64,000 bases of DNA from NCBI GenBank assembly GCA_963769935.1, contig CAVYNY010000001.1, forward strand, positions 1 to 64,000, in the 5' to 3' direction. The translations under genes were made by a program, and so were the position numbers. This DNA comes from an uncultured delta proteobacterium. GTDB lineage: Bacteria; Desulfobacterota; Desulfobacteria; Desulfobacterales; JAFDCJ01. The notes under the pieces were generated by a model. The model made no database searches and had not been told where the DNA came from. It worked only from the letters and a program-made list of their open reading frames with translations. This document shows positions 19,485 through 32,557 of this stretch, piece after piece (position 1 is the first letter of the stretch; each line of letters opens with the position of its first letter).

Positions 19485-19967
19485 ATGGAAAGAAGGAGTT
19501 TTCTCAAAGCGGTTGCATGGGGCATCGCAGCGGTTGCGGTCGAGAAGAAAGCGTCTGCGGGCGACAAATATTTTCCGGTTAAAGTGGACGCGAAGCTGTT
19601 TGACAACATCAATCGTGTGAAAGATATCTCGAATGAGACTCACTTGGAAAAGTTGCATGCGCCGTTCATCACCGCGCCGGAAAAGGTTAAAGTCGGAGAG
19701 CCGTTTACGGTTGAAATAAACGTCGGCAAGGTGCTGCACCCAATGGGCCCGGCTCATTGGATCGAGTTTCTACAATTAGACATCGGCAACGAACCTGCCG
19801 GCAGAGTGGATTTTCAGTCCAGTGGATACCTGAACCCGAAGGCGACTTTCACTGTCGTTCTGACAAAAGAGTCGGCTCCGGAAGGCAAGGTTACCTTGAT
19901 CGCTCATGAGCGTTGCAACCTTCACGGATACTGGGAAGGCACAAAAGATATAGCGGTTGGTTTATAA
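19485..19967 (+). CDS. Superoxide reductase-like (class II SORL/neelaredoxin) protein with Tat signal
   Basis: MERRSFLK twin-arginine motif, iron-ligand motifs EKLH, HPM, HWI and CNLHG, and a strong GGAGG RBS. Confidence 0.85.
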   Translation: MERRSFLKAVAWGIAAVAVEKKASAGDKYFPVKVDAKLFDNINRVKDISNETHLEKLHAPFITAPEKVKVGEPFTVEINVGKVLHPMGPAHWIEFLQLDIGNEPAGRVDFQSSGYLNPKATFTVVLTKESAPEGKVTLIAHERCNLHGYWEGTKDIAVGL

Positions 19968-20063: not shown

Positions 20064-20867
20064 ATGACAATCAACCCCCAGGCAGAGATAACCAATAGTA
20101 TTTTGAGCCGCTTGCGCGCCCGGTGGTGGGCGGCAGCCGGCCTTTGCTTTTTGATTCTGGCAGGCGGTTTTTTTCTGTTTAACCGTGACCGCGGCCGGCC
20201 GGCCGATTATCAATGGATTTTGCAGTCGATGATCATTATGATCTATGTGCTGGGACTGCTGAGACACGGACTGCGCTGGAATTACCACCCCGTTGAAAAG
20301 GTTTTGCACTCAAGTCTGGGCTATGGTACATGGTTGACGATCATACGGGGCGCTATGCTTGCCGTTTTGGCCGGCTACCTCTTTCAGCCCTGGCCGGAGT
20401 CGAAATTTTTCCCCGGCCGTCTTTCCTGGTCCCCCGGTTTGCTTTACATAACGGCTTCGATTCTGGACTACATCGACGGTCGGGCCGCCAGGGCCAGCCG
20501 ACATGAAACCCGGCTGGGCGCATTTCTTGATATCAACCTGGATGCTCTGGGTTTGCTGATCGCACCGCTGGCGGCGGTCTGGTACGGCCAGCTGCCGCCG
20601 GCCTATTTGAGCGTCGGCTGTGCCTATTATGTTTTTATAGGCGGTATCCGGCTGAGAAAAAAATTCTCAAAGCCGGTTGTTGAGCCTGAACCCTGGCGGG
20701 GAGCCCGAATATTCGCCGGATTCCAAATGGTCGTTGTCGGCATCGCATTGCTTCCTGTGGTGAAGCCCCCGCTTACGACGCTGATTGCTTATGCAGCGAT
20801 GATACCCCTGTTAGCCGGATTTGTCAGAGACTGGATGATTGTATGCGGATATTTGAAACAAAAATGA
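20064..20867 (+). CDS. CDP-alcohol phosphatidyltransferase family protein
   Basis: D-x2-DG-x2-AR-x8-G-x3-D-x3-D motif (DYIDGRAAR...GAFLDINLD). Membrane protein. Confidence 0.9.
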   Translation: MTINPQAEITNSILSRLRARWWAAAGLCFLILAGGFFLFNRDRGRPADYQWILQSMIIMIYVLGLLRHGLRWNYHPVEKVLHSSLGYGTWLTIIRGAMLAVLAGYLFQPWPESKFFPGRLSWSPGLLYITASILDYIDGRAARASRHETRLGAFLDINLDALGLLIAPLAAVWYGQLPPAYLSVGCAYYVFIGGIRLRKKFSKPVVEPEPWRGARIFAGFQMVVVGIALLPVVKPPLTTLIAYAAMIPLLAGFVRDWMIVCGYLKQK

Positions 20868-20906
20868 GCGCTGCAGATATCTACAGAATGGGGAATTATT
20901 TTGTTT

Positions 20907-21647
20907 ATGCCGATTGATTCGATTGAAAGGCTTGAATCCTGCTTGGCCGGAGCGGAAGCCTTTCGCCTCAAAAATAATCGCCCTTTTATTACGGTCAGCT
21001 ATGCCCAGAGCGTGGACGGCAGCATTGCGACCCGAAGCAGGCAGCCAATCGGCCTGAGCGGTCCGGAGTCGGCACACCTGACCCATCAAATCCGTGCCTG
21101 CAGCGACGCCATCCTGATCGGAATCGGAACACTTTTGGCCGACGATCCAGAGCTGAACGTGCGCCTGGTGGAAGGAAGCAGCCCCCAACCGATCATTCTG
21201 GACACGCATCTGCGAACCCCGTTGAATGCCAGACTCATGCGACGATCCGATACCCGGCCCTGGATCATAAACGGTGAAGATAACGGAGGTGAGCAGTTCC
21301 TGGCGCTGCAGGATGCCGGATCGACCCCTATTCGCTGTGCCGCCTCCCGGGCTGGAAAAATCGATCTGCATGCCCTGATGAAGATTCTGACCGAAAAGCG
21401 GATCAACAGCCTCATGGTGGAGGGTGGCGCCCGGGTGATAACCAGCTTTGTCAATTCCCGGTTGGTGGATCAATTTATCGTGACGGTTTCCCCGAGATTT
21501 GTGGGCGGACTGCCGGTAATCGATTCCGACGGCCTGCAATTCGCTACTCATTTGGAGCTGGCGGAGGTAAGTTACCGGCATGCAGGCAATGACCTGATCA
21601 TATGGGCCCGCCCGAAGTGGGGTGATAATTTCAAAGAAAATTTTTAA
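20907..21647 (+). CDS. RibD C-terminal (pyrimidine reductase/DHFR-like) domain protein
   Basis: RPFITVSYAQSVDGSIA, DAILIGIGTLLADDPEL and LMVEGG motifs. No deaminase domain. Confidence 0.88.
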   Translation: MPIDSIERLESCLAGAEAFRLKNNRPFITVSYAQSVDGSIATRSRQPIGLSGPESAHLTHQIRACSDAILIGIGTLLADDPELNVRLVEGSSPQPIILDTHLRTPLNARLMRRSDTRPWIINGEDNGGEQFLALQDAGSTPIRCAASRAGKIDLHALMKILTEKRINSLMVEGGARVITSFVNSRLVDQFIVTVSPRFVGGLPVIDSDGLQFATHLELAEVSYRHAGNDLIIWARPKWGDNFKENF

Positions 21648-21740
21648 GATTGCGAGTGATGGATCATCAAGGACAATGGCAAATTCGGCGAGGCGCAAGG
21701 TGCAAGGCGCAGGGCCCAAGGCTGAAGGAATGAATTTTTC

Positions 21741-21820
21741 ATCACGAAAGCACGAAGGGACGAAAATAGGAAAAGGAATAAAATAATTTTTGTGCCTTCT
21801 AAATTTCGTGCTTTCGTGAT
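21741..21820. repeat. ATCACGAAAGCACGAA...TTCGTGCTTTCGTGAT hairpin element, copy 1
   Basis: 16-bp perfect terminal inverted repeat. Family copies lie at 23070 and 24810. Confidence 0.85.
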
Positions 21821-21892
21821 TAATTTTTTTTTAGTTCCTCGATAAATGGGAATTTCGGTTTCACACCAACCAGCTTTTCCGGATTACGTGTT

Positions 21893-22921
21893 ATGCAGCG
21901 AACATCGGTCATTTTTAAAAATCCGTATGAAATCGAACTTATCCAAAGTCCCCTGCCCGCCCCCGGTGAGGAAGAAGTTCTGGTAAAGACCCGGATTTCA
22001 GGCATCAGTCCGGGCACAGAGCTGCTGGTCTATCGCGGCCGGTTTCCGACCGGCCTGCCGGTGGATACAGCCATTCCCACCCTGGCTCGCCCTTTCAGCT
22101 ACCCGCTCGCGTACGGGTATGCCTCCGTTGGAAAGGTTGTCGCGGTTGGCCGCTCAGCAAAAAAAGAACTGTTAGACCGGTCGGTCTTCTGCTTTCATCC
22201 CCACGAAAGCCATTATACAATCCACCAGAATCAGCTGATTCTGCTTCCCGACGATATCGATCCGGTCGAGGCTGCATTTTTAGCGACCATGGAAACCGCG
22301 GTTAATTTTTTAATGGACGGCCGGCCGGTCATCGGCGAAAATGTGGTGATATTCGGGCTGGGCATTGTCGGCTTGTTGACCACTGCCTTGCTTGCTCGAC
22401 TGCCGCTGGGCAATCTGATTGCGCTGGACCCCTATGCGCTCAGGCGCGAAAACGCTGAAATTGCCGGGGCCCGGACTGTATTGGATCCAGACGCAGCGAG
22501 TGTGCTCGATGAAGCGGAAAGAGTGCTGGAATCCGCCACCGGTGAAGAGGGAGCCGATTTGGTTTATGAATTATCCGGCAATCCGGCCGCATTGAATCAG
22601 GCGCTGGCAATTGCCGGGCCCGGTGCACGCATTGTGATCGGCTCATGGTACGGCACCAAAAAGGCGGAGCTGGACCTGGGCGGCCGGTTTCATCGCAACC
22701 GGATCCGGCTGATCAGCAGCCAGGTAAGCACCCTGGCGCCGCAGTTTTCCGCCCGCTGGACCAAAAACCGGCGCATGAATGTAGCTCTGGAAATGATTCG
22801 CCAGTTGAATCCCGGCCGCTTTGTCACCCACCGTTTCGACGTTCAGCAGGCCGCGGCGGCCTATGACCTTCTGGACCAAAGACCGCAGGAGGCCGTTCAG
22901 GTGCTTTTAACCTATGAGTAG
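21893..22921 (+). CDS. MDR-family (zinc-binding-like) alcohol dehydrogenase
   Basis: SGISPGTE, GYASVG, HPHES and the Rossmann motif FGLGIVG. Confidence 0.88.
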   Translation: MQRTSVIFKNPYEIELIQSPLPAPGEEEVLVKTRISGISPGTELLVYRGRFPTGLPVDTAIPTLARPFSYPLAYGYASVGKVVAVGRSAKKELLDRSVFCFHPHESHYTIHQNQLILLPDDIDPVEAAFLATMETAVNFLMDGRPVIGENVVIFGLGIVGLLTTALLARLPLGNLIALDPYALRRENAEIAGARTVLDPDAASVLDEAERVLESATGEEGADLVYELSGNPAALNQALAIAGPGARIVIGSWYGTKKAELDLGGRFHRNRIRLISSQVSTLAPQFSARWTKNRRMNVALEMIRQLNPGRFVTHRFDVQQAAAAYDLLDQRPQEAVQVLLTYE

Positions 22922-23069
22922 GATGGCCATGGATGTTATCCTCTGTGCTTCTGTCCTGCAATATTTCTAAATCAACAGAAGAAGCTGCTCGAAGCAATGC
23001 CTAAAATTACAAAATGCCTAAAATGCCTAAAATTGAGGTATTCTGTCGATCTTAAGGAAAAATTTTTTC

Positions 23070-23150
23070 ATCACGAAAACACGAAATATAGAAAGCACGA
23101 AATTTATCTTTCCTCCCTTTCGTGTCTTCGTCCTTTCGAGCTTTCGTGAT
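23070..23150. repeat. ATCACGAAA hairpin element, copy 2
   Basis: atcacgaaaacacgaa...ttcgagctttcgtgat. Confidence 0.85.
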
Positions 23151-23224
23151 TAATTTCTTTTTTGATTCTCCGCCTCAGGCGGATCCAGGTTGGGATTTAA
23201 AATATTATCACAAGGAGCCGACCC

Positions 23225-23611
23225 ATGTACACGGTAGCAGTCAAACGTGATTTTATCGCCCGGCATTATCTGACCGGCGGGGATTGGGGTGAGGAAAATG
23301 AAACGCATGGGCACCATTATACGATCGAAGTCCGCCTGGAGGGCCTTAATCTCGATGACCACGGTTATCTGACGGATATCTGCGACATCGAGTCGGTGCT
23401 CGATACCCGGATCGCCTATTTCAGGGACAAGATACTCAATAAGCTGCCCGAGTTCGAGGGTCTGAATCCCAGCATCGAGCATTTTGCCCGAATTCTTTGC
23501 CAAACCCTGGCAGCCAATATTCAAACCCGTCCTCTAAGCGCGATGGCCGTTAAGCTTTGGGAAAATGAATCGGCCTGGGCCCAATTTCGTCAAACATTCA
23601 AATCCGGATAA
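23225..23611 (+). CDS. 6-pyruvoyl-tetrahydropterin synthase / QueD superfamily (COG0720) protein
   Basis: FIARH, HGHHY, NPSIEHFA and LWEN motifs. No Cys precedes HGH. Confidence 0.88.
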   Translation: MYTVAVKRDFIARHYLTGGDWGEENETHGHHYTIEVRLEGLNLDDHGYLTDICDIESVLDTRIAYFRDKILNKLPEFEGLNPSIEHFARILCQTLAANIQTRPLSAMAVKLWENESAWAQFRQTFKSG

Positions 23612-23644
23612 ACAGCAGGTCGGAAATTCCTTCCCGGGGAACAA

Positions 23645-24736
23645 ATGCATATTGGGCTGATCATCTATGGAAGTCTGGCCACTCTTACCGGCGGGTATAT
23701 TTACGATCGGATCCTGGTTGACTTCATGCAACAGCGTGGCCACCAGGTTGAAATTATCTCACTGCCCCAGCGGCGCTTCGGAAGTCATTTACTGGATAAC
23801 TTCTGCAGCCGATGGGTAACGAATTCGCCGGCCCTGCAATTTGATCTCCTCCTGCAGGATGAACTTTGCCATCCATCTCTATGCCGGGTTAACCACCGTC
23901 TTCGAAAAAAAGCACATTTTCCCGTGGTCGCCATTGTGCATCAGGTGCTGTGCCGCCAACCGCGAAGCCGCCTGCTCAACCGCATTTACGAAACCGTCGA
24001 ACGACCTTATCTTAATTCCGTCGACGCATTTGTTTTCAACAGCAACACTACCCGTCAAAGCGTTGAAAAACTCGTCGCCGGCCGCCGGCCGGCCGTTGTG
24101 GCCTGTCCGGCCGGGGACCGGCTGGGTTGTCTGGCGTCACCGGAGCGGATCGAATCCAGGGCCATGTCCCCCGGCCCGCTCAGGCTGATATTCGTCGGCA
24201 ATGTGCTGCCCAACAAGGGGCTGCTGCCGCTGATCCGGGGGTTGTCGAAACTGCCCTCTGAATCCTGGCACCTGACGGTTGCGGGCAGCCGGGGAATGGA
24301 CCGCCGCTATTCCCGCAGGGTTCAAAAATTGGCCGCCGCCCAAAATATGGGGCAGCAGGTTGCGTTTGCAGGTCCCCTGGACGGTCCTGATTTGGCGTCG
24401 CTTTTAACCCGAAGTCATGTTTTTGTCATGCCCTATTCCCATGAGGGCTTCGGAATGGCCCATCTTGAAGCCATGGGGTTCGGCCTGCCCGTCATCGGCT
24501 CTTCAAGAGGGGCGGTCAAGGAATTTGTGTTACCGGAGCGAAACGGATTTTTGATCGACCCCGGTGATGTTCAGACAGCCCTGGCCTGCCTGAGTCGATT
24601 GAACCGTGATCGTCAATTGCTGGTCAAAATGAGCCGCGCCGCCCTGCAAACATTTCATGAACGTCCGCACTGGAGTGATACAATGACGGTAGTCCATCGA
24701 TTTTTAAGCGATCTGGTGAGCAAAGAACTGGTTTAG
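23645..24736 (+). CDS. Glycosyltransferase family 4
   Basis: LTGGYIYD N-terminal motif and the EGFGMAHLEAM (E-x7-E) motif. Confidence 0.92.
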   Translation: MHIGLIIYGSLATLTGGYIYDRILVDFMQQRGHQVEIISLPQRRFGSHLLDNFCSRWVTNSPALQFDLLLQDELCHPSLCRVNHRLRKKAHFPVVAIVHQVLCRQPRSRLLNRIYETVERPYLNSVDAFVFNSNTTRQSVEKLVAGRRPAVVACPAGDRLGCLASPERIESRAMSPGPLRLIFVGNVLPNKGLLPLIRGLSKLPSESWHLTVAGSRGMDRRYSRRVQKLAAAQNMGQQVAFAGPLDGPDLASLLTRSHVFVMPYSHEGFGMAHLEAMGFGLPVIGSSRGAVKEFVLPERNGFLIDPGDVQTALACLSRLNRDRQLLVKMSRAALQTFHERPHWSDTMTVVHRFLSDLVSKELV

Positions 24737-24809
24737 TCAGTTGTGAACTTCCGACTCAGACTCGGAGCGTCTGGGTTATTCAAGAAACTAACTTAAAAAG
24801 TAAAAGCCA

Positions 24810-24883
24810 ATCACGAAAGCGCGAAATAAAATCTAATATAAACCGTCGTTTTTCGTGGTTTCCTTCTTTCGTGCTTTCGTGAT
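24810..24883. repeat. ATCACGAAA hairpin element, copy 3
   Basis: atcacgaaagcgcgaa...ttcgtgctttcgtgat. Confidence 0.85.
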
Positions 24884-24942
24884 GAATAAATTTTTAGGCT
24901 CACGACTCATGAGCGCAGATTCAAGTTTATTAGGAGTTATCC

Positions 24943-26601
24943 GTGGTAGGTTTCAAATATATTTGCGCCGGTTTTTTATCATTATTAAAAAAACTCAAGC
25001 CCACCCTGGCATTCATCCTGTCGGTGTGCTTTCTCGATGTGGTGCTTAACATCCGGTATCCGGCATCGGATCTGCCGCTGTGGACGCTTTTCAAGCTTTC
25101 ACCGGAAATCCTCGGTATCATCCTGATCATATGGCTGACAGTCGTTTTGAGGATTCGGTTTCAGGCGGCCGTATTTATACCGCTGATTGCTTGGGTGATA
25201 TTTCTGCGCCTGTTCCGGATTGGTGATGTTCTGGTACCGATGTATTTTTTCCGGCCTTTTAACCTGTATCTGGATTCGCGGTTTTTGCCGGATCTGATCC
25301 ATCTGCTGTACACGACCACGCCGCACCGGACATTCATATTCGGGATTTCATTTGCCGCGGGACTGCTGATTGGCGTCGCGTTGCTTTTGCAGCTCTCATT
25401 TAAAGCCATCCACAGCTATTTGTCGGCTTCGCCTATCCGTTGCCGGGCTATGGGGGCCGTAACAGCAGGCCTGATGCTGCTGTCTTTTCTTATGGCCGGC
25501 ACCCCCCTGGCTGACAATCCGTTCCTGACCCGGAGCTTCTTCGGCCGGGTGGCGGAAGAATTTGATTTTATTCTGCAGGTCAAAAGCCACCGCGCCCGGA
25601 ATATGGCGGTAATCGGATCGGTGTTGGAAAAAAGCAGGACGTTGCCATCGTCTTTGGATAAGCTGCACGGTGCCGATGTGTATCTTTTCTTTGTCGAATC
25701 CTACGGTTACACCATTTTTAGCGATCCGCGCCATTTCCCGAAAATCAAGCCCGATCTGCTCGCTTTGGAAAAGAAGTTAAAGGATCAGGGGTTCGGCATC
25801 GTTTCGAACTTTTTCAGTTCACCCACCTTCGGCGGTTCCTCCTGGCTGGCCCATGCCAGCCTTGCCAGCGGTGTTCATCTCAACAGCCAGATGCGCTACA
25901 ATCTGCTGATTACCTCGCAGGTCAAAAGCCTTGCCCGCTATTTCAACGGCGCCGGCTATCGTACGGTATTATCGATGCCCGACACCCAGTGGCCCTGGCC
26001 GGAAGGTGATTTTTACGGTTATCAGGCAAAATACTATGCCTGGAATTTCGACTACCGGGGTCCCACGTACGGCTGGTCGACCATGCCCGACCAGTATGTA
26101 CTGGACTTCATCCGGCGCCGCGAAATGACAAAGCCGGGCCGGCCCCAGTTTATCGAGTTCATCTTGGGCAGCAGCCATGCACCTTTTCACCGCCAGCCGC
26201 CCTATCTGCCTGATTGGTCCCGCATCGGCAACGGCGCCGTTTACAATAATCTTGAAGTAATTACATTTCCCATTGTGTGGCCCGATCTGACCAATGCCTC
26301 CGAGGGCTATGTGGCTGCCATCCGCTACGATCTGACCGTCTTGAGTGAGTTCATCTCGCAGTTTGTAAAGGACGACGCCTTGATCGTTATTTTAGGCGAC
26401 CACCAGCCGAATGTTCAGCTGACCGGCCCAAATCAGCTCTGGTCGGTCCCCGTGCATGTTCTCAGCCGCGACAAGGATTTTATAAAAGCTTTTCAAAACC
26501 GCGGTTTTCTGCCCGGTCTCATTCCTACCCAGCCGCCGCCCCATCGCGGGATGGAAAGCTTTTTGTTCGATTTCCTGGAAGACTTCAGCACGCAGGAATA
26601 G
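24943..26601 (+). CDS. Membrane-anchored alkaline-phosphatase/sulfatase superfamily protein (LtaS/MdoB-like architecture)
   Basis: N-terminal transmembrane helices, then FVESYG, SPTFGGSSWLAH, SSHAP and LGDHQP metal-site motifs. Confidence 0.82.
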   Translation: MVGFKYICAGFLSLLKKLKPTLAFILSVCFLDVVLNIRYPASDLPLWTLFKLSPEILGIILIIWLTVVLRIRFQAAVFIPLIAWVIFLRLFRIGDVLVPMYFFRPFNLYLDSRFLPDLIHLLYTTTPHRTFIFGISFAAGLLIGVALLLQLSFKAIHSYLSASPIRCRAMGAVTAGLMLLSFLMAGTPLADNPFLTRSFFGRVAEEFDFILQVKSHRARNMAVIGSVLEKSRTLPSSLDKLHGADVYLFFVESYGYTIFSDPRHFPKIKPDLLALEKKLKDQGFGIVSNFFSSPTFGGSSWLAHASLASGVHLNSQMRYNLLITSQVKSLARYFNGAGYRTVLSMPDTQWPWPEGDFYGYQAKYYAWNFDYRGPTYGWSTMPDQYVLDFIRRREMTKPGRPQFIEFILGSSHAPFHRQPPYLPDWSRIGNGAVYNNLEVITFPIVWPDLTNASEGYVAAIRYDLTVLSEFISQFVKDDALIVILGDHQPNVQLTGPNQLWSVPVHVLSRDKDFIKAFQNRGFLPGLIPTQPPPHRGMESFLFDFLEDFSTQE

Positions 26602-26795: not shown

Positions 26796-29700
26796 ATGCC
26801 GACCAATAAGAAAAAACCCGCCGCCAAAAAGCTCTCCCGGGCGCATAAAGCCGGCGACGAGAGTCGGGAAACTAAAAAACAGGCCAAGGAAGCCCGCCAA
26901 AAATCCGATGGCCGTCAGCAGACGCAAGCCGAACCCGCTAAGCCTGCCGAAGGCGAAGGATTATTTCCCATTGTGGGCATCGGCGCATCGGCCGGCGGCC
27001 TGGAGGCGTTGGAGGCTTTTTTTGAAAACCTGCCGCTCGAAAACGGGATTGCCTGTGTTGTCATCACCCACACTGACCCGAAGCGCACCAGCCTGCTGCC
27101 GAGCATCATCAAAAGAAAAACCAAAATTTCCGTCAAACAGATCGAAGATGAGATGCCCGTTGAGCCGAACACCATCTACCTGCCACCGTCCGACCGCGAT
27201 TTGCTGCTTAATAAGCAATATTTTCAGCTGAAAAAAAGGCCGGCCAGGGATGCGATCCACCTGCCGATTGATCTATTTTTGCGGCATTTGGCCGCCGAAT
27301 GCGGCGAACGGGCTGCTTGCGTCATCCTGTCCGGCACCGGAACCGACGGCACCCATGGGCTGCGCGCCATCAAAGAAAAATCCGGCCTGGCAGTGGTTCA
27401 AAAGCCGGATTCGGCCAGGCACTCGGGCATGCCGGCCAGTGCAATCGACACCGGCCTGGTGGACTTCGTGCTTTCCCCGCAGGAAATGCCCGGCCGGCTG
27501 ATCGAATATTTCAAGCATCCCGACTCAATTAAACCCATCCCGCAAAAAGAGCCCCAAAAAGAGCCCGACAAAATCCATCAAATCCTTGCCCTTCTGGCCA
27601 AACACACCCGCCACGATTTTAGCCTGTATAAAGCCAGCACGCTTCAGCGGCGCATCGGACGGCGCATTGCCGTGACCCGCAGCCGGGATTCATCCGAATA
27701 TCTCCAGGTCCTGTATCGGAACAACCTGGAGGTCCAGGCCCTGTTTCAGGACCTGCTCATCGGCGTCACCAGCTTTTTCAGGGATGCGGGCGCCTTTGCC
27801 TATTTAAAAGAAAACGTGCTGGCTGAACTGTTTGCCCGTAATAAGGAGGGCCAAAGCCTGCGGGTGTGGGTGCCGGGCTGCGCCACCGGCGAAGAAGCCT
27901 ATTCCGTGGCTATCATTTTAAAAGAATACATGGAAGAAAAAGACAGCTCGCGCGAAATACAGATCTTCGGCACCGATATCGATCCGCGCGCCATCAAAAA
28001 GGCCCGCGCCGGCGAATATCTGGAAAACATCGCCGCCGACGTCGGCGCCGAACGGTTTAAACGGTTTTTTGTCAAAAAAAACAGTCGCTACCTGGTCAAA
28101 CGCGACATCCGCGAACCGGTGGTATTTGCCGAGCAAAACCTGCTGCGCGATCCGCCCTTCTCGGAGTTGGATCTGCTGGTGTGCCGCAACCTGCTCATCT
28201 ATCTTAAGACCGAAGCCCAGGACAGGTTGATCCCGCTGTTCCACTACACCCTGAAAAAAAACGGCATCCTGTTTTTAGGCAGCTCGGAGACTATCGGCCG
28301 TTTTCCCGAACTTTTCGAGCCGTTGAGCAGGTCGCACAGCATCTTTCGCAAAAAGGAAAGCGCAGTCCGGCCCCAGATTCGGTTTCCCGCCGGGAAAATC
28401 GAACCGGAACCCTTCGACGACGAGCGGGAAGACGCAAAGCACACACACGGAGAGGATCATATCAGTCTGGACAAGGCAGTCACAAATGTGCTGCTGGAAG
28501 AGTTCACCCCGGCCTGCGTGGTTGTAAATCATGGCGGCGAAATCGTTTACACCCGCGGCCGGACAGGCAAATACCTGGAACTTGCGCCGGGCAAACCCAA
28601 TTTGAACATTGCCGACATGGCCCGGGATGGTTTGCGCTTTCCGCTGATATCCGCGCTGCGCCAGGCTAAAGAGACCAAGGCGCCGATTCGCGAAACCGGT
28701 CTGAAGGTCAAGACCAACGGCGAGTACCAGTGGATCGACCTGACGGTCAAAGGATTCAGCCGACGGTCGTTGAATGAAGCCTGGCTGGTGGTCTTCGAGG
28801 ACGTTCCCGCTCCGGCGAAAAAGGCCGCAACACCGAATCGAGGCCGGAAAAACGAACGGAAAAAGGATCGCGTCCAGGAACTGGAGCAGGAGATCCTGCG
28901 GGTGCGCCAGGAATACCACAGCGTCAGGGAGGAGCTTGAGACATCCAACGAGGAGCTGCGCTCGTCCAACGAGGAGTTACAGTCGTCCAACGAGGAGCTT
29001 CAGAGCACCAACGAAGAGCTGGAATCGTCCCGCGAGGAGCTTCAGTCGCTCAACGAAGAGCTCAACACCGTCAATGACGAGTTTCAAAATAAAATACTGG
29101 AGCTTCGCGCTTCCTACCAGGTCGTCACCGAGACCCTCAACAGCACCCGGATCGCCATCGTCATATTAGATAAAGACCTGTGCGTTGCCCGCTTCACCAA
29201 GGCGGCCACCGAGCTGATCAATCTGATCGATTCGGACCTGGGACGCCCGCTCGGGCATTTCTCGGACAACCTGGAGTTCGAAGATCTTCCCGGCACCGCC
29301 GCCCGGGTGCTCAATGACCTCGCCCCCTTCGAAGACGAGGTAAAGACCGACGACGGGCACTGGTATCGAATGAGCATCATGGTCCACCGTCAAGTGGATC
29401 ATCTCATCGCAGGCGTCGTGATGACCTTCGTCAACATCGATCCACAGAAAAAGGTCCAGCAGGAGATCGAGGATATGAAAGCCAGGGAAATTCAGTCGGC
29501 CAGGCGATATGCGGAAAATGTCATCGACACGGTCAGGGAATCGCTGCTGGTGCTCGACGAGCAGATGCAGGTGATCTCCGCCAATCGCCGATTTTACCAA
29601 ACCTTTGCTACCGACTCGAAGCAGACTGAGGGCAAAAATTTGTTCGAATTGGGAAACGGCCAGTGGGATATGCCCGAACTGCGCAAACTTATGAAGCAAG

Positions 29701-29858
29701 CTGCCGGGCAGCGCCGATCCTTCGAGGATTTCCGGGTCGAGCATAAGTTTCCGAATATCGGATTCAAGAAAATGCTGCTTAATGCCCGCTATCTCCAATC
29801 AGACACCGAGGATGAAAACAAAGTCCTGCTGGCTATCGAGGATGTGACCGACCGATGA
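26796..29858 (+). CDS. CheB/CheR fusion protein with coiled coil and PAS domains
   Basis: GIGASAGG, LSGTGTDG, VTSFFRD, GCATGEEAYS, CRNLLIY and (S)NEELQ heptads. Confidence 0.95.
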   Translation: MPTNKKKPAAKKLSRAHKAGDESRETKKQAKEARQKSDGRQQTQAEPAKPAEGEGLFPIVGIGASAGGLEALEAFFENLPLENGIACVVITHTDPKRTSLLPSIIKRKTKISVKQIEDEMPVEPNTIYLPPSDRDLLLNKQYFQLKKRPARDAIHLPIDLFLRHLAAECGERAACVILSGTGTDGTHGLRAIKEKSGLAVVQKPDSARHSGMPASAIDTGLVDFVLSPQEMPGRLIEYFKHPDSIKPIPQKEPQKEPDKIHQILALLAKHTRHDFSLYKASTLQRRIGRRIAVTRSRDSSEYLQVLYRNNLEVQALFQDLLIGVTSFFRDAGAFAYLKENVLAELFARNKEGQSLRVWVPGCATGEEAYSVAIILKEYMEEKDSSREIQIFGTDIDPRAIKKARAGEYLENIAADVGAERFKRFFVKKNSRYLVKRDIREPVVFAEQNLLRDPPFSELDLLVCRNLLIYLKTEAQDRLIPLFHYTLKKNGILFLGSSETIGRFPELFEPLSRSHSIFRKKESAVRPQIRFPAGKIEPEPFDDEREDAKHTHGEDHISLDKAVTNVLLEEFTPACVVVNHGGEIVYTRGRTGKYLELAPGKPNLNIADMARDGLRFPLISALRQAKETKAPIRETGLKVKTNGEYQWIDLTVKGFSRRSLNEAWLVVFEDVPAPAKKAATPNRGRKNERKKDRVQELEQEILRVRQEYHSVREELETSNEELRSSNEELQSSNEELQSTNEELESSREELQSLNEELNTVNDEFQNKILELRASYQVVTETLNSTRIAIVILDKDLCVARFTKAATELINLIDSDLGRPLGHFSDNLEFEDLPGTAARVLNDLAPFEDEVKTDDGHWYRMSIMVHRQVDHLIAGVVMTFVNIDPQKKVQQEIEDMKAREIQSARRYAENVIDTVRESLLVLDEQMQVISANRRFYQTFATDSKQTEGKNLFELGNGQWDMPELRKLMKQAAGQRRSFEDFRVEHKFPNIGFKKMLLNARYLQSDTEDENKVLLAIEDVTDR

Positions 29859-31552
29859 CCAAAAGCGAAATATCTGAAAACATCAGATCAAAAACGGCCC
29901 ATAAAGCACTGCGGAAAAAGGTGGACCGGATTGCCGGGGGCGAAGCCGTCGGTTTGACTGAAGAAGAGCAGCTGGATCTTTTGCGACTGGCCCATGAGCT
30001 CGAGCTGGTCCAGGTAGAATTGGAAATTCAAAACGAAGAGCTGCAGAAAACCAGCCGGGATTTGGAGGCCGCAAGATTTGAGTTCTGGGATCTGTACGAA
30101 TCTGCGCCGGTAGCCTATGTCTCCCTGAGTAAAAAGGGTATCGTGGAAAAGGCCAATGCCGCCGCCCGGCAAATGCTGTCCGGAAGATCGGACGGCCATT
30201 TGATCGGCCAGGCCTTTTCAAATTTTGTCATGCCTGAAGATATGAACCGTTATTTTCAGGATATGAAAAAAATCACCCGAAATGAGAAGCCCGTTTTTTT
30301 TGAACTGCAGTTTGTGGACGCCGCGGGAAGGTCGATACCCGTTTACTGCCAGGCATCAACCAAATTTGACCCGCAAGGCGGGTTAATCAGCTGGAACCTG
30401 GCTTTTTTCGACATCTCCGAACAAAGGCGGCTGGAAGAAGCGCTGCGGATCAGCCGGGAGAAACTGGCAATGGCCACTCAAGCCGGAGGAATCGGCATCT
30501 GGATTGTGGACCTGAAGACCGGCAAATCCCACTGGAACGCGCCGCTGTATCGCATGCTGGGGTTGGCGCCCCGCAGCGGCCCCGAGGATCAGCAGGAATT
30601 TTTCAAATTCATTCATCCGGATGATCGCCAGGGTGTGCTGGAAAGCGCGCAAAACGTGGCAACGCTTGAACATAAAATCGACCTGGAATTTCGCATCATC
30701 CGAGCGGACGACGGCAGCACCCGCTGGCTGGCGGCCAGAGGATCCATCGACCGCGACGACAGCGGCCGGCCGGTCCAGTTAAGGGGGGTCAACTTCGATA
30801 TCACCGATCGCAAACAGGCCGAAGAGACGCTGCGCCTGGCACAATTTCAGCTGGCCGAGCAGCTGGTGGAAACCAGGCAGATCAACGAGGAGCTTTCCCA
30901 GTATGCCTACGCCGTCACCCACGACCTGAAAGCGCCCCTGCGTGCCATTCGCAACTACGCCGATTTTCTGTACGAGGACCTGGCCGACACGCTCACCGGC
31001 GATCAGAAAGAATATCTGAAGGGGTTGAAGAGGGCCGTAGACCAGGGAGACGCCCTGATCAACGACCTGCTGAACTTTTCACGCGTCGGGCGGGTATCGC
31101 TGGTGAAGCAGGCAGCCGATGTGCCCGGCATCGTGCACGAGATTCGCTCCCTGCTCGACCTGCCGCCCGGTGTTGAGATCGAAGTTCAACCGCAATGGCC
31201 GGAGGTTTGGGCCGACCACACCCTGCTGAAACAGATCCTGCAGAACCTGATCGTAAACGGCATCAAATTCAACCAACGGAAGCTCAAACGCATCGAAATC
31301 GGCTGGCAGCCGGGACCGGATGCCCGCCTTGAAATCTTTGTGCGCGACAACGGCATCGGCATCAAGCCCGAATACCGGGACCAGGTATTTAAGATTTTCC
31401 GGCGGTTGCACACCGACAGCGAATACGAAGGCACCGGCATCGGCCTGGCCATAGTGCAGAAGGCCGCCCAGAAACTGGGCGGTTCGGTGCGGCTGGAATC
31501 CACAGCCGGTGAAGGCAGCACGTTTTATGTCAACCTGCCGAATTCCAAATAG
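29855..31552 (+). CDS. PAS-domain sensor histidine kinase
   Basis: THDLKAPL H-box and N, D and G boxes. ATGA overlap with the CheBR gene. Confidence 0.93.
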   Translation: MTKSEISENIRSKTAHKALRKKVDRIAGGEAVGLTEEEQLDLLRLAHELELVQVELEIQNEELQKTSRDLEAARFEFWDLYESAPVAYVSLSKKGIVEKANAAARQMLSGRSDGHLIGQAFSNFVMPEDMNRYFQDMKKITRNEKPVFFELQFVDAAGRSIPVYCQASTKFDPQGGLISWNLAFFDISEQRRLEEALRISREKLAMATQAGGIGIWIVDLKTGKSHWNAPLYRMLGLAPRSGPEDQQEFFKFIHPDDRQGVLESAQNVATLEHKIDLEFRIIRADDGSTRWLAARGSIDRDDSGRPVQLRGVNFDITDRKQAEETLRLAQFQLAEQLVETRQINEELSQYAYAVTHDLKAPLRAIRNYADFLYEDLADTLTGDQKEYLKGLKRAVDQGDALINDLLNFSRVGRVSLVKQAADVPGIVHEIRSLLDLPPGVEIEVQPQWPEVWADHTLLKQILQNLIVNGIKFNQRKLKRIEIGWQPGPDARLEIFVRDNGIGIKPEYRDQVFKIFRRLHTDSEYEGTGIGLAIVQKAAQKLGGSVRLESTAGEGSTFYVNLPNSK

Positions 31553-31867: not shown

Positions 31868-32557
31868 TTAGCATTGCCCCAGCAGGATTTCACGCGCTTT
31901 GGGCCCGCAGTTGAACAGCAGATCAAACGTCGAAAGGTCGGGGATAAAATCGCCCCACAATTGCGGGTAGACCGGCGAGCGGGGATTGATCCGGCGCAGT
32001 TCGATGCCGGCGCTTTCGAACAGCGCGGCATTCAGATATTTGTCGGCGGCACCGGGCGCCAGATAAACGGACGCATCAAAATAGCGGCAGATCTCAAGCA
32101 GCAGCCGATCGCCGCCGGCGTCGATATTCAGTTCGGACAGCCGGAGGATCTCGGTTTCAAGGCCGAGATTCAGCATCAGATGCCGGAGAATGGCGAGATT
32201 AAAATCAATGAGCCGGCCGGAAGCCGTTGAAAATATATTCTCGATAAACTGAAGATGTTCATAAAAATAAGGGGCAGCGGCATAGGCCTGTTTCAGGCTG
32301 GCCGGGTGTTTGCGCGGCCAGCTGCCTTCACGGCACAGGCGCACGTCATCGATAGATTGCAGTCCCAGACCTTTTTTCCAGACGGGAATCGTCATCCACA
32401 GAGTCCCCTGGTCGTTTTTAAAGCGATTGCGGGTAATCCAGGTAGTTGCCCTGGGAAACTGAACACAGTCGAGGACGACAAAAACATCGGCCAGATGAAC
32501 GCGGTAAAAAAATCCGGGAAAGGGGGCGAAATAGGGTCGGCTGGCGGAAATGATCAT
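31868..32557 (-). CDS. WbqC family protein
   Basis: PYFAPFPGFF, DVFVVLDCVQF, WITRNR and LSTFDLLFNCG. Confidence 0.88.
   Translation of the reverse strand: MIISASRPYFAPFPGFFYRVHLADVFVVLDCVQFPRATTWITRNRFKNDQGTLWMTIPVWKKGLGLQSIDDVRLCREGSWPRKHPASLKQAYAAAPYFYEHLQFIENIFSTASGRLIDFNLAILRHLMLNLGLETEILRLSELNIDAGGDRLLLEICRYFDASVYLAPGAADKYLNAALFESAGIELRRINPRSPVYPQLWGDFIPDLSTFDLLFNCGPKAREILLGQC

Follow-up and report, generated by a model that had tools for sequence, protein, structure and literature searches.

We asked what six adjacent genes make in an uncultured delta proteobacterium of the order Desulfobacterales. The genes lie at positions 20064-26601 of a 64,000-nucleotide stretch of contig CAVYNY010000001.1 (positions 1 to 64,000; hereafter the window). 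A previous interpretation from the letters alone (the sequence-only reading) had assigned them to a CDP-alcohol phosphotransferase (CDP-OH), a stand-alone RibD reductase domain (RibD_C), an MDR dehydrogenase, a T-fold protein of the PTPS family, a GT4 glycosyltransferase and an LtaS/MdoB-like membrane transferase, with a glycosylated, lipid-linked envelope compound as their product. Six co-oriented plus-strand open reading frames, every one of full length, were confirmed at this location, and the families were confirmed by Pfam and NCBIfam searches. Our answer, to which we assign a probability of about 0.5, is that the genes form a variant of the PTPS-IV cluster without the GTP cyclohydrolase RibA, and that this variant would build a glycosylated head group from GTP, couple it to a phospholipid and pass it on to an acceptor in the envelope.

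The six genes very probably belong to the orphan PTPS-IV cluster. The best match of the PTPS protein in the Protein Data Bank (PDB) was Streptomyces SCO6650 (3D7J, E 5.7e-7). The catalytic Cys is missing, as had been read from the motif EENETHGH: the protein has W21-G-E-E24-N-E-T-H28-G-H30, in which Glu24 aligns with the Cys of QueD (CxxxHGH); 39 of 40 aligned relatives likewise have Glu here. His14, His28, His30, Glu85 and Glu113 were invariant in 40 close relatives. The excerpts of PMC5041015 used here give the motifs of PTPS-I, II and III as CxxxHGH, CxxxxxHGH and ExxHGH; the window protein fits none of them, and scored 47.8 bits against the TIGR03367 cut-off of 89.25. For PTPS-IV, the excerpts of PMC5445326 describe a signature that is 'preferentially' FGPAQ, with PF00925 and RibD_C genes nearby. 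FGPAQ does not occur in the window protein, and WGEEN, which stands in the same register, was taken as a variant. Alignment with FGPAQ-type members showed that this Glu subtype is common to haloarchaea, Chloroflexota and Desulfobacterota. As a COG0720 T-fold protein nearest to SCO6650 and devoid of the catalytic Cys, the protein was classified as PTPS-IV, and the RibD_C, MDR, GT4 and CDP-OH genes around it are neighbours expected of that family.

The sequence-only reading had placed the genes in a PTPS-IV-type orphan neighbourhood, with which the SCO6650 match and the conserved gene order both agree. Among 80 loci anchored on the PTPS gene, we detected GT4 in 69, MDR in 63, RibD in 42, a methyltransferase in 40, RibA in 29, a flippase-like gene in 23, CDP-OH in 19 and a sulfatase-like gene in 4; the corresponding counts for the 43 loci with full flanks were 37, 36, 25, 23, 17, 14, 13 and 2. 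Annotated plasmids of Streptomyces, haloarchaea, Thiodictyon, Peteryoungia and Palleronia carry the same gene set. The genes co-occur widely, the reverse of the outcome that had been named as speaking against a common pathway. The SCO6650 neighbourhood, with its RibD_C and PF00925 genes, shares the MDR-PTPS-GT4 core and the CDP-OH gene with the window. In contrast to it, the window cluster has an LtaS-like transferase and no RibA, methyltransferase or flippase-like gene, and its PTPS protein has WGEENETHGH instead of FGPAQRLHGA, with Glu at the Cys position and the third His kept as in haloarchaeal members. Searches of open-access text found no named product of the cluster, a scope outside which lie the primary PTPS-IV paper and its supplements, which may describe parts of the neighbourhood. 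Additional genes were seen inside the cluster elsewhere: a small, hydrophobic protein (about 115 aa, motifs AxIH and LNGLGY) that matches no Pfam family, in 24 loci, mostly of Chloroflexota (e.g. L011:5201-5563), and DUF420 in 5 loci.

The layout of the window is not peculiar to this genome. The same six genes in the same order were found in 9 other loci, and 40 fetched loci, or 33 when dereplicated at 90% identity, contained all six, a grouping far beyond chance. We also fetched 80 metagenomic loci anchored on the sulfatase-like gene and scored the 28 with at least 6.5 kb upstream. The other five genes were present in 25 of these, a soluble methyltransferase in 10, a flippase-like gene in 5 and RibA in none. 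Inside the window cluster, neither GTP cyclohydrolase II nor a methyltransferase was found. The sequence-only reading had remarked on both absences. That of the cyclohydrolase stands, but the expectation of finding one does not, as its absence is the rule in this lineage and no defect of this copy. The genome has one PF00925 match, which lies within the rib operon, and in a set of 61 genomes (this one and 60 relatives) each of the 14 PTPS-IV-positive genomes has a single PF00925 match; the pathway therefore probably draws on the housekeeping RibA. The six-gene, RibA-less and transferase-bearing set is a natural recurring variant of a known orphan cluster, and is new as a variant.

As for the methyltransferase, the absence holds for the cluster but not for the genome. 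A cluster-type soluble methyltransferase was found in 2 of the 61 genomes, namely this one and a genome without any cluster match. In this genome it lies on another contig (G000:C22:42621-43629, minus strand) in an unrelated neighbourhood and is split over two frames; it may be a pseudogene or an assembly error. Many close relatives have a membrane PEMT-type methyltransferase in the cluster instead: of the 40 complete loci, 17 have it alone and 2 have it together with the soluble enzyme (19 in all), while 10 have the soluble enzyme alone and 11 have neither. The PEMT/Ste14-family gene occupies two different positions in the cluster (L167:7427-8203 and L002:8731) or is fused to the transferase (P0022 and P0025). 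In a plasmid of Streptomyces fungicidicus (L132:13338), the cluster RibA has Met where the 31 other parsed RibA domains have Tyr, and it adjoins a creatininase-family gene; we take both features to resemble the formyl-retaining SCO6655 type.

The RibD_C protein points to a candidate first substrate. It lacks a deaminase domain and scored 160.5 bits with TIGR00227 (cut-off 150.15). R65, G74-x-G76, T77, D81, R88, E174 and G175-G176 are conserved, and T77, D81, E174 and G176 are the counterparts of Thr79, Asp83, Glu180 and Gly182, which yeast Rib7 needs according to the sections of PMC3631187 consulted. The same sections state that the position of Lys152 in bacterial RibD selects between the deaminated and the 2-amino substrate (PMC3631187). 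PDB alignments place Ser33 of the window protein there. The position is not Lys in 82 of 83 cluster RibD domains, the remaining one being unparsed, and the housekeeping RibD of this genome keeps the Lys. Catalytic Thr/Asp/Glu, the NADPH Gly motif and the lack of a Lys152 equivalent form the residue pattern of reductases acting on non-deaminated 2,5-diamino-6-ribosylamino-4(3H)-pyrimidinone 5'-phosphate (DAROPP), so the residues of RibD_C point to this 2-amino compound as its substrate. Judged by these residues, the pathway likely starts with the reduction of DAROPP. The archaeal and fungal DAROPP reductases MJ0671 and Rib7 are, in the same sections of PMC3631187, likewise stand-alone RibD_C proteins with the catalytic Thr/Asp/Glu, the Gly motifs and no Lys152; the window protein differs from them in falling under the TIGR01508 cut-off (129 versus 186 bits). 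Since a complete bacterial ribD is present elsewhere in the genome, the window RibD_C would serve a branch and not the riboflavin route.

In the MDR protein, GISPGTE replaces GICGSD and GYASVG replaces GHEFSG, and the zinc-binding Cys and His are missing in the alignments. Its joint-best NCBIfam matches were bchC and tdh, both far under cut-off. A literature search for zinc independence of BchC found nothing. The GT4 protein has residues invariant in 56 sequences, and its model has a predicted local distance difference test score (pLDDT) of 92. Its nearest folds were tll1590, BshA and MshA, a type that accepts small polyols.

CDP-alcohol phosphotransferases share the consensus DxxDGxxAR...GxxxDxxxD. 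It is intact in the window protein as D135xxD138G..AR..G152xxxD156xxxD160, at least 90% conserved in 16 relatives, and the enzyme is predicted to attach the head group to a phosphatidyl carrier. For the last gene, E252, S300 and D486 were invariant and H412 and H487 at least 90% conserved in 131 transferase sequences. In its model (pLDDT 95.8), fold matches to LtaP, EptC, GacH, MCR-1 and LtaS ranked above true sulfatases including sulfamidase. A sequence-profile search against the PDB returned nothing relevant and significant (LtaP, E 0.3), and the protein had no NCBIfam match and no PDB sequence match at E ≤1. A true sulfatase was rejected, because residues 241-330 contain no formylglycine motif (C/SxPxR) and the fold ranks favour the LtaS type. 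The protein combines a membrane domain, an alkaline-phosphatase-fold domain, metal ligands and a Ser nucleophile, and its assignment as an LtaS/EptA-like phospho-head-group transferase, close to what the sequence-only reading had proposed, holds by active-site residues and modelled fold. Membrane helices, alkaline-phosphatase fold, metal ligands and a hydroxyl nucleophile are shared with enzymes of the LtaS/LtaP, EptA/EptC/MCR-1, GacH and OpgB (MdoB) types. The window transferase is only 10-17% identical to these and comes with its own CDP-OH lipid synthase, and its nucleophile is Ser, whereas the nucleophile known for LtaS/EptA/GacH/OpgB-type enzymes is Thr. CDP-OH fused to a sulfatase-like domain was found in 3 (P0138, P0250 and P0258) of the best 150 representatives, the 9 long ones having been scanned, and fused to RibD_C in one sequence (P0270).

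The pathway that we propose is as follows. Housekeeping RibBA would supply DAROPP, which the stand-alone RibD_C would capture before deamination and reduce to its ribityl form. The guanine-like 2-amino-4-oxo face, which T-fold enzymes bind, would be kept. The next step is the least certain of all: the MDR, devoid of zinc, would oxidise one of the ribityl hydroxyls, and PTPS-IV would use Glu24 instead of Cys as its base and form a dihydropterin-like alcohol by ring closure or remodelling. GT4 would add a sugar onto a side-chain hydroxyl, and CDP-OH would join a free hydroxyl to the phosphatidate of CDP-diacylglycerol. The LtaS-like enzyme would then take the phospho-head group on Ser300, free diacylglycerol and pass the group to a periplasmic acceptor. 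We regard a lipid-linked intermediate in this organism as rather probable, and put onward transfer of the head group to an envelope polymer at even odds. The excerpts of PMC4161248 describe a conversion of the RibA product to dihydroneopterin monophosphate without FolE by chlamydial RibA and TrpF; that route uses an isomerase, whereas the window cluster would remodel the compound by a reductase together with a dehydrogenase and a T-fold protein. Unrelated phosphatases (HAD, ComB-like, inositol monophosphatase and PAP2) recur in or near the cluster across lineages (L015, L060, L133 and L122), which suggests a dephosphorylation step that the window copy must obtain elsewhere.

Whether the soluble core and the lipid arm act together was judged from their distribution. 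Among the 61 genomes, PTPS-IV was found in 14, the transferase in 16 and both in 13. In a sample of 401 proteobacterial genomes, for which only the top three candidates per genome were scored for the transferase, PTPS-IV was found in 29, the transferase in 19 and both in 14, against 1.4 expected if independent, an excess that kinship inflates. The two genes lie within about 10 kb of each other in seven of the 14 and are unlinked in the other seven. The five transferase-positive genomes without PTPS-IV also lack MDR, and all five have an NMT1/THI5 ABC binding protein beside the CDP-OH, transferase and flippase-like genes, with GT4 in 4 and cytochrome b561 in 4 of these loci. The nearest solved structure to the binding protein is the formylaminopyrimidine-binding protein 3IX1, presumably ThiY. 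The 29 PTPS-IV-positive genomes yielded no close orthologue of it (best 31% identity), and neither did the genome of the window. An importer in place of synthesis genes is the classic salvage pattern. Its presence where the synthesis genes are missing suggests an aminopyrimidine- or pterin-like compound as the substrate of the lipid arm, with GT4 acting once this compound has been made; judging by gene content, some bacteria without these genes seem to take up the building block from outside. The family is versatile, since the excerpts of PMC4418817 name riboflavin, thiamine-related compounds or methionine as ligands of related COG0715 binding proteins. Loci of the same kind were observed on Dinoroseobacter shibae pDSHI05 (L118:10688-18466) and in L127, L129, L260-L262, L264 and L265, which have the lipid arm with CDP-OH, transferase, flippase-like gene, GT4 and cytochrome b561; they carry the NMT1/THI5 ABC importer, often with mdoH adjoining, and no PTPS-IV at the locus. 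Several genomes of the same genus as the window (G001, G004, G007, G009 and G010; L241-L245) had no other cluster gene detected near PTPS-IV; in these, CDP-OH and, except in G001, the transferase lie on contigs apart from it.

Several observations weigh against our reading. PTPS-IV was found in 25 of 401 genomes sampled from the phylum Desulfobacterota, and in the 24 other than the window genome, the transferase was detected in 1; CDP-OH was detected in 1 when proteins were searched and in 3 when neighbourhoods were profiled. Fifteen of the 29 PTPS-IV-positive proteobacterial genomes had no transferase among the top three candidates each, and several transferase genes of Streptomyces and Paracoccus stand alone. 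One event may account for all five salvage genomes, which are 72-89% identical to a single query. The window cluster has no flippase-like gene, and the rest of the genome has only distant PF03706-type matches. The transferase fold matches are moderate, with template modelling scores of 0.34-0.46. Tetrahydrobiopterin glucosyltransferases (PDB 5ZE7 and 9V0L) share the GT4 fold, but the first of them appeared at rank 36, well under sucrose-phosphate-synthase-like, BshA and MshA matches, and the window GT4 has no special likeness to pterin glucosyltransferases. The product, the lipid and the order of steps are inferred, and no product was observed. Across the family, the soluble core can stand alone and the lipid arm is optional. 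The sequence-only reading is partly supported: its cluster identity holds, and the optional lipid arm speaks against a single obligatory pathway.

Alternatively, two independent modules might often sit side by side, with RibD, MDR, PTPS-IV, GT4, the methyltransferase and the phosphatase making a soluble pterin or pyrimidine glycoside, as in the pterin glycosides of cyanobacteria, and the CDP-OH/transferase pair handling another head group. Most PTPS-IV-positive genomes of the phylum have the soluble core but no lipid arm, often with a HAD phosphatase (9 of 25 loci), and Rhodobacterales plasmids have the lipid arm but no core. In the absence of the core, however, a cluster-type GT4 and an aminopyrimidine-type importer remain with the lipid arm; both arms are found in the same genome even where they are unlinked (7 of 14), and the CDP-OH-RibD fusion, albeit one sequence only, joins them. 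We regard separate modules as doubtful. The lipid might also be the end product itself, a membrane lipid whose head group is redox-active or absorbs UV; the LtaS-like enzyme would then only trim or recycle it, and cytochrome b561 would re-reduce it. Many clusters have CDP-OH and a flippase-like gene with no transferase, and cytochrome b561 was found at 6 of 16 fetched plasmid loci and 5 of 19 proteobacterial loci, but the full LtaS-type active site is kept in the 131 transferase sequences and the window cluster has no cytochrome b561, which makes this explanation improbable.

Two further explanations concern the soluble enzymes, and we consider both very improbable. One sentence in the excerpts of PMC5041015, referring to unpublished data, assigns PTPS-IV to coenzyme F420 synthesis, and haloarchaea and Streptomyces do have the cluster. 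In this 96.7% complete genome neither CofG nor an F420 ligase was matched although positive controls were detected, and a role in F420 synthesis was rejected for this genome; it would also leave the GT4, CDP-OH and transferase genes unexplained. A PF01933 match in the genome is not diagnostic for F420, as E. coli matches too. RibD and PTPS could alternatively be spare copies for riboflavin, queuosine or folate synthesis, to which their Pfam families belong. The genome has a separate full ribD (above the TIGR00326 cut-off) and queD (above the TIGR03367 cut-off, CENLHGH), so that simple duplication was rejected and the sequence-only reading survives the objection that the window genes only complement these two; the window PTPS is without any PTPS-I, II or III motif and has a patchy distribution in the phylum. 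A decayed cluster was rejected on the six full-length frames and the recurring layout.

Returning to a head group transferred to the envelope, we sought candidates for its acceptor. Five of 19 proteobacterial loci and 2 plasmids have an mdoH gene close to the transferase, and the window genome has opgG-opgH away from the cluster. OpgB acts on periplasmic glucan. By analogy, an osmoregulated periplasmic glucan would be the best-guess acceptor, a tentative choice. More speculatively, at least four phyla might share a new class of phospholipid with a glycosylated GTP-derived pterin or aminopyrimidine head group, grafted by LtaS-like enzymes onto periplasmic glucans or envelope polymers as a redox-active or light-absorbing coat that cytochrome b561 recharges; scavenging by ThiY-like importers in some members would make the compound a shared metabolite.

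PTPS-IV has a solved structure and no settled function, and its cluster occurs in Streptomyces, haloarchaea, Chloroflexota, Proteobacteria and Desulfobacterota. If our reading is true, it would define a lipid head group and an envelope modification that are both new. The gene set as such is unsurprising. The window copy is a minimal recurring set that seemingly needs only the RibA of the host, a concrete first substrate can be read from the residues of RibD, and the salvage importer includes a soluble binding protein that should bind the sought intermediate; together these make an old question directly testable.

Table 1 Positions of the cluster genes and intergenic repeats in the window.
Feature	Coordinates	Strand	Size and matches
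CDP-alcohol phosphotransferase	20064-20867	+	267 aa, PF01066 E 6.8e-16
Stand-alone RibD_C reductase, archaeal/fungal type	20901-21647	+	248 aa, PF01872 only
MDR dehydrogenase without the usual zinc ligands	21893-22921	+	342 aa, PF00107
PTPS-IV-type T-fold protein, Glu subtype (WGxENxxHxH)	23225-23611	+	128 aa, PF01242
GT4 glycosyltransferase	23645-24736	+	363 aa, PF00534, E267-X7-E275
Membrane-anchored LtaS/EptA/GacH-like phospho-head-group transferase	24943-26601	+	552 aa, PF00884, about 5 N-terminal hydrophobic helices
Intergenic palindromic repeat (TCACGAAA...TTTCGTGA), copy 1	21735-21840	no strand	
Intergenic palindromic repeat, copy 2	23051-23170		
Intergenic palindromic repeat, copy 3	24802-24903		

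Two junctions between the six genes measure 33 nt, and the other three measure 206-303 nt and contain one copy each of a palindromic element (TCACGAAA...TTTCGTGA). The element is dispersed, with 33 copies across the genome, and is probably not part of the pathway. With these three repeat-bearing gaps the genes are loosely packed, and co-transcription is not established. Promoter and terminator scans gave results at chance level, an Rfam search returned no match, and the ESM Atlas gave only generic names. Contigs from four sediment metatranscriptomes of one study cover parts of all six genes, mostly at 90-95% identity; DNA carry-over is possible.

Directly upstream and co-oriented, at 19485-19967, is a gene for a desulfoferrodoxin-domain, superoxide-reductase-like protein with a twin-arginine-like N-terminus (MERRSFLK). 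It had no tblastn match in 133 loci, although its adjacency is kept in near-identical strains; on this comparison it is no conserved partner of the cluster. On the other side, a CheB-CheR-PAS gene and a sensor kinase gene (26796-31552) separate the cluster from a convergent WbqC-like gene (31868-32557, minus strand). A WbqC gene was also observed in 16 of the 80 metagenomic transferase loci, which is probably synteny.

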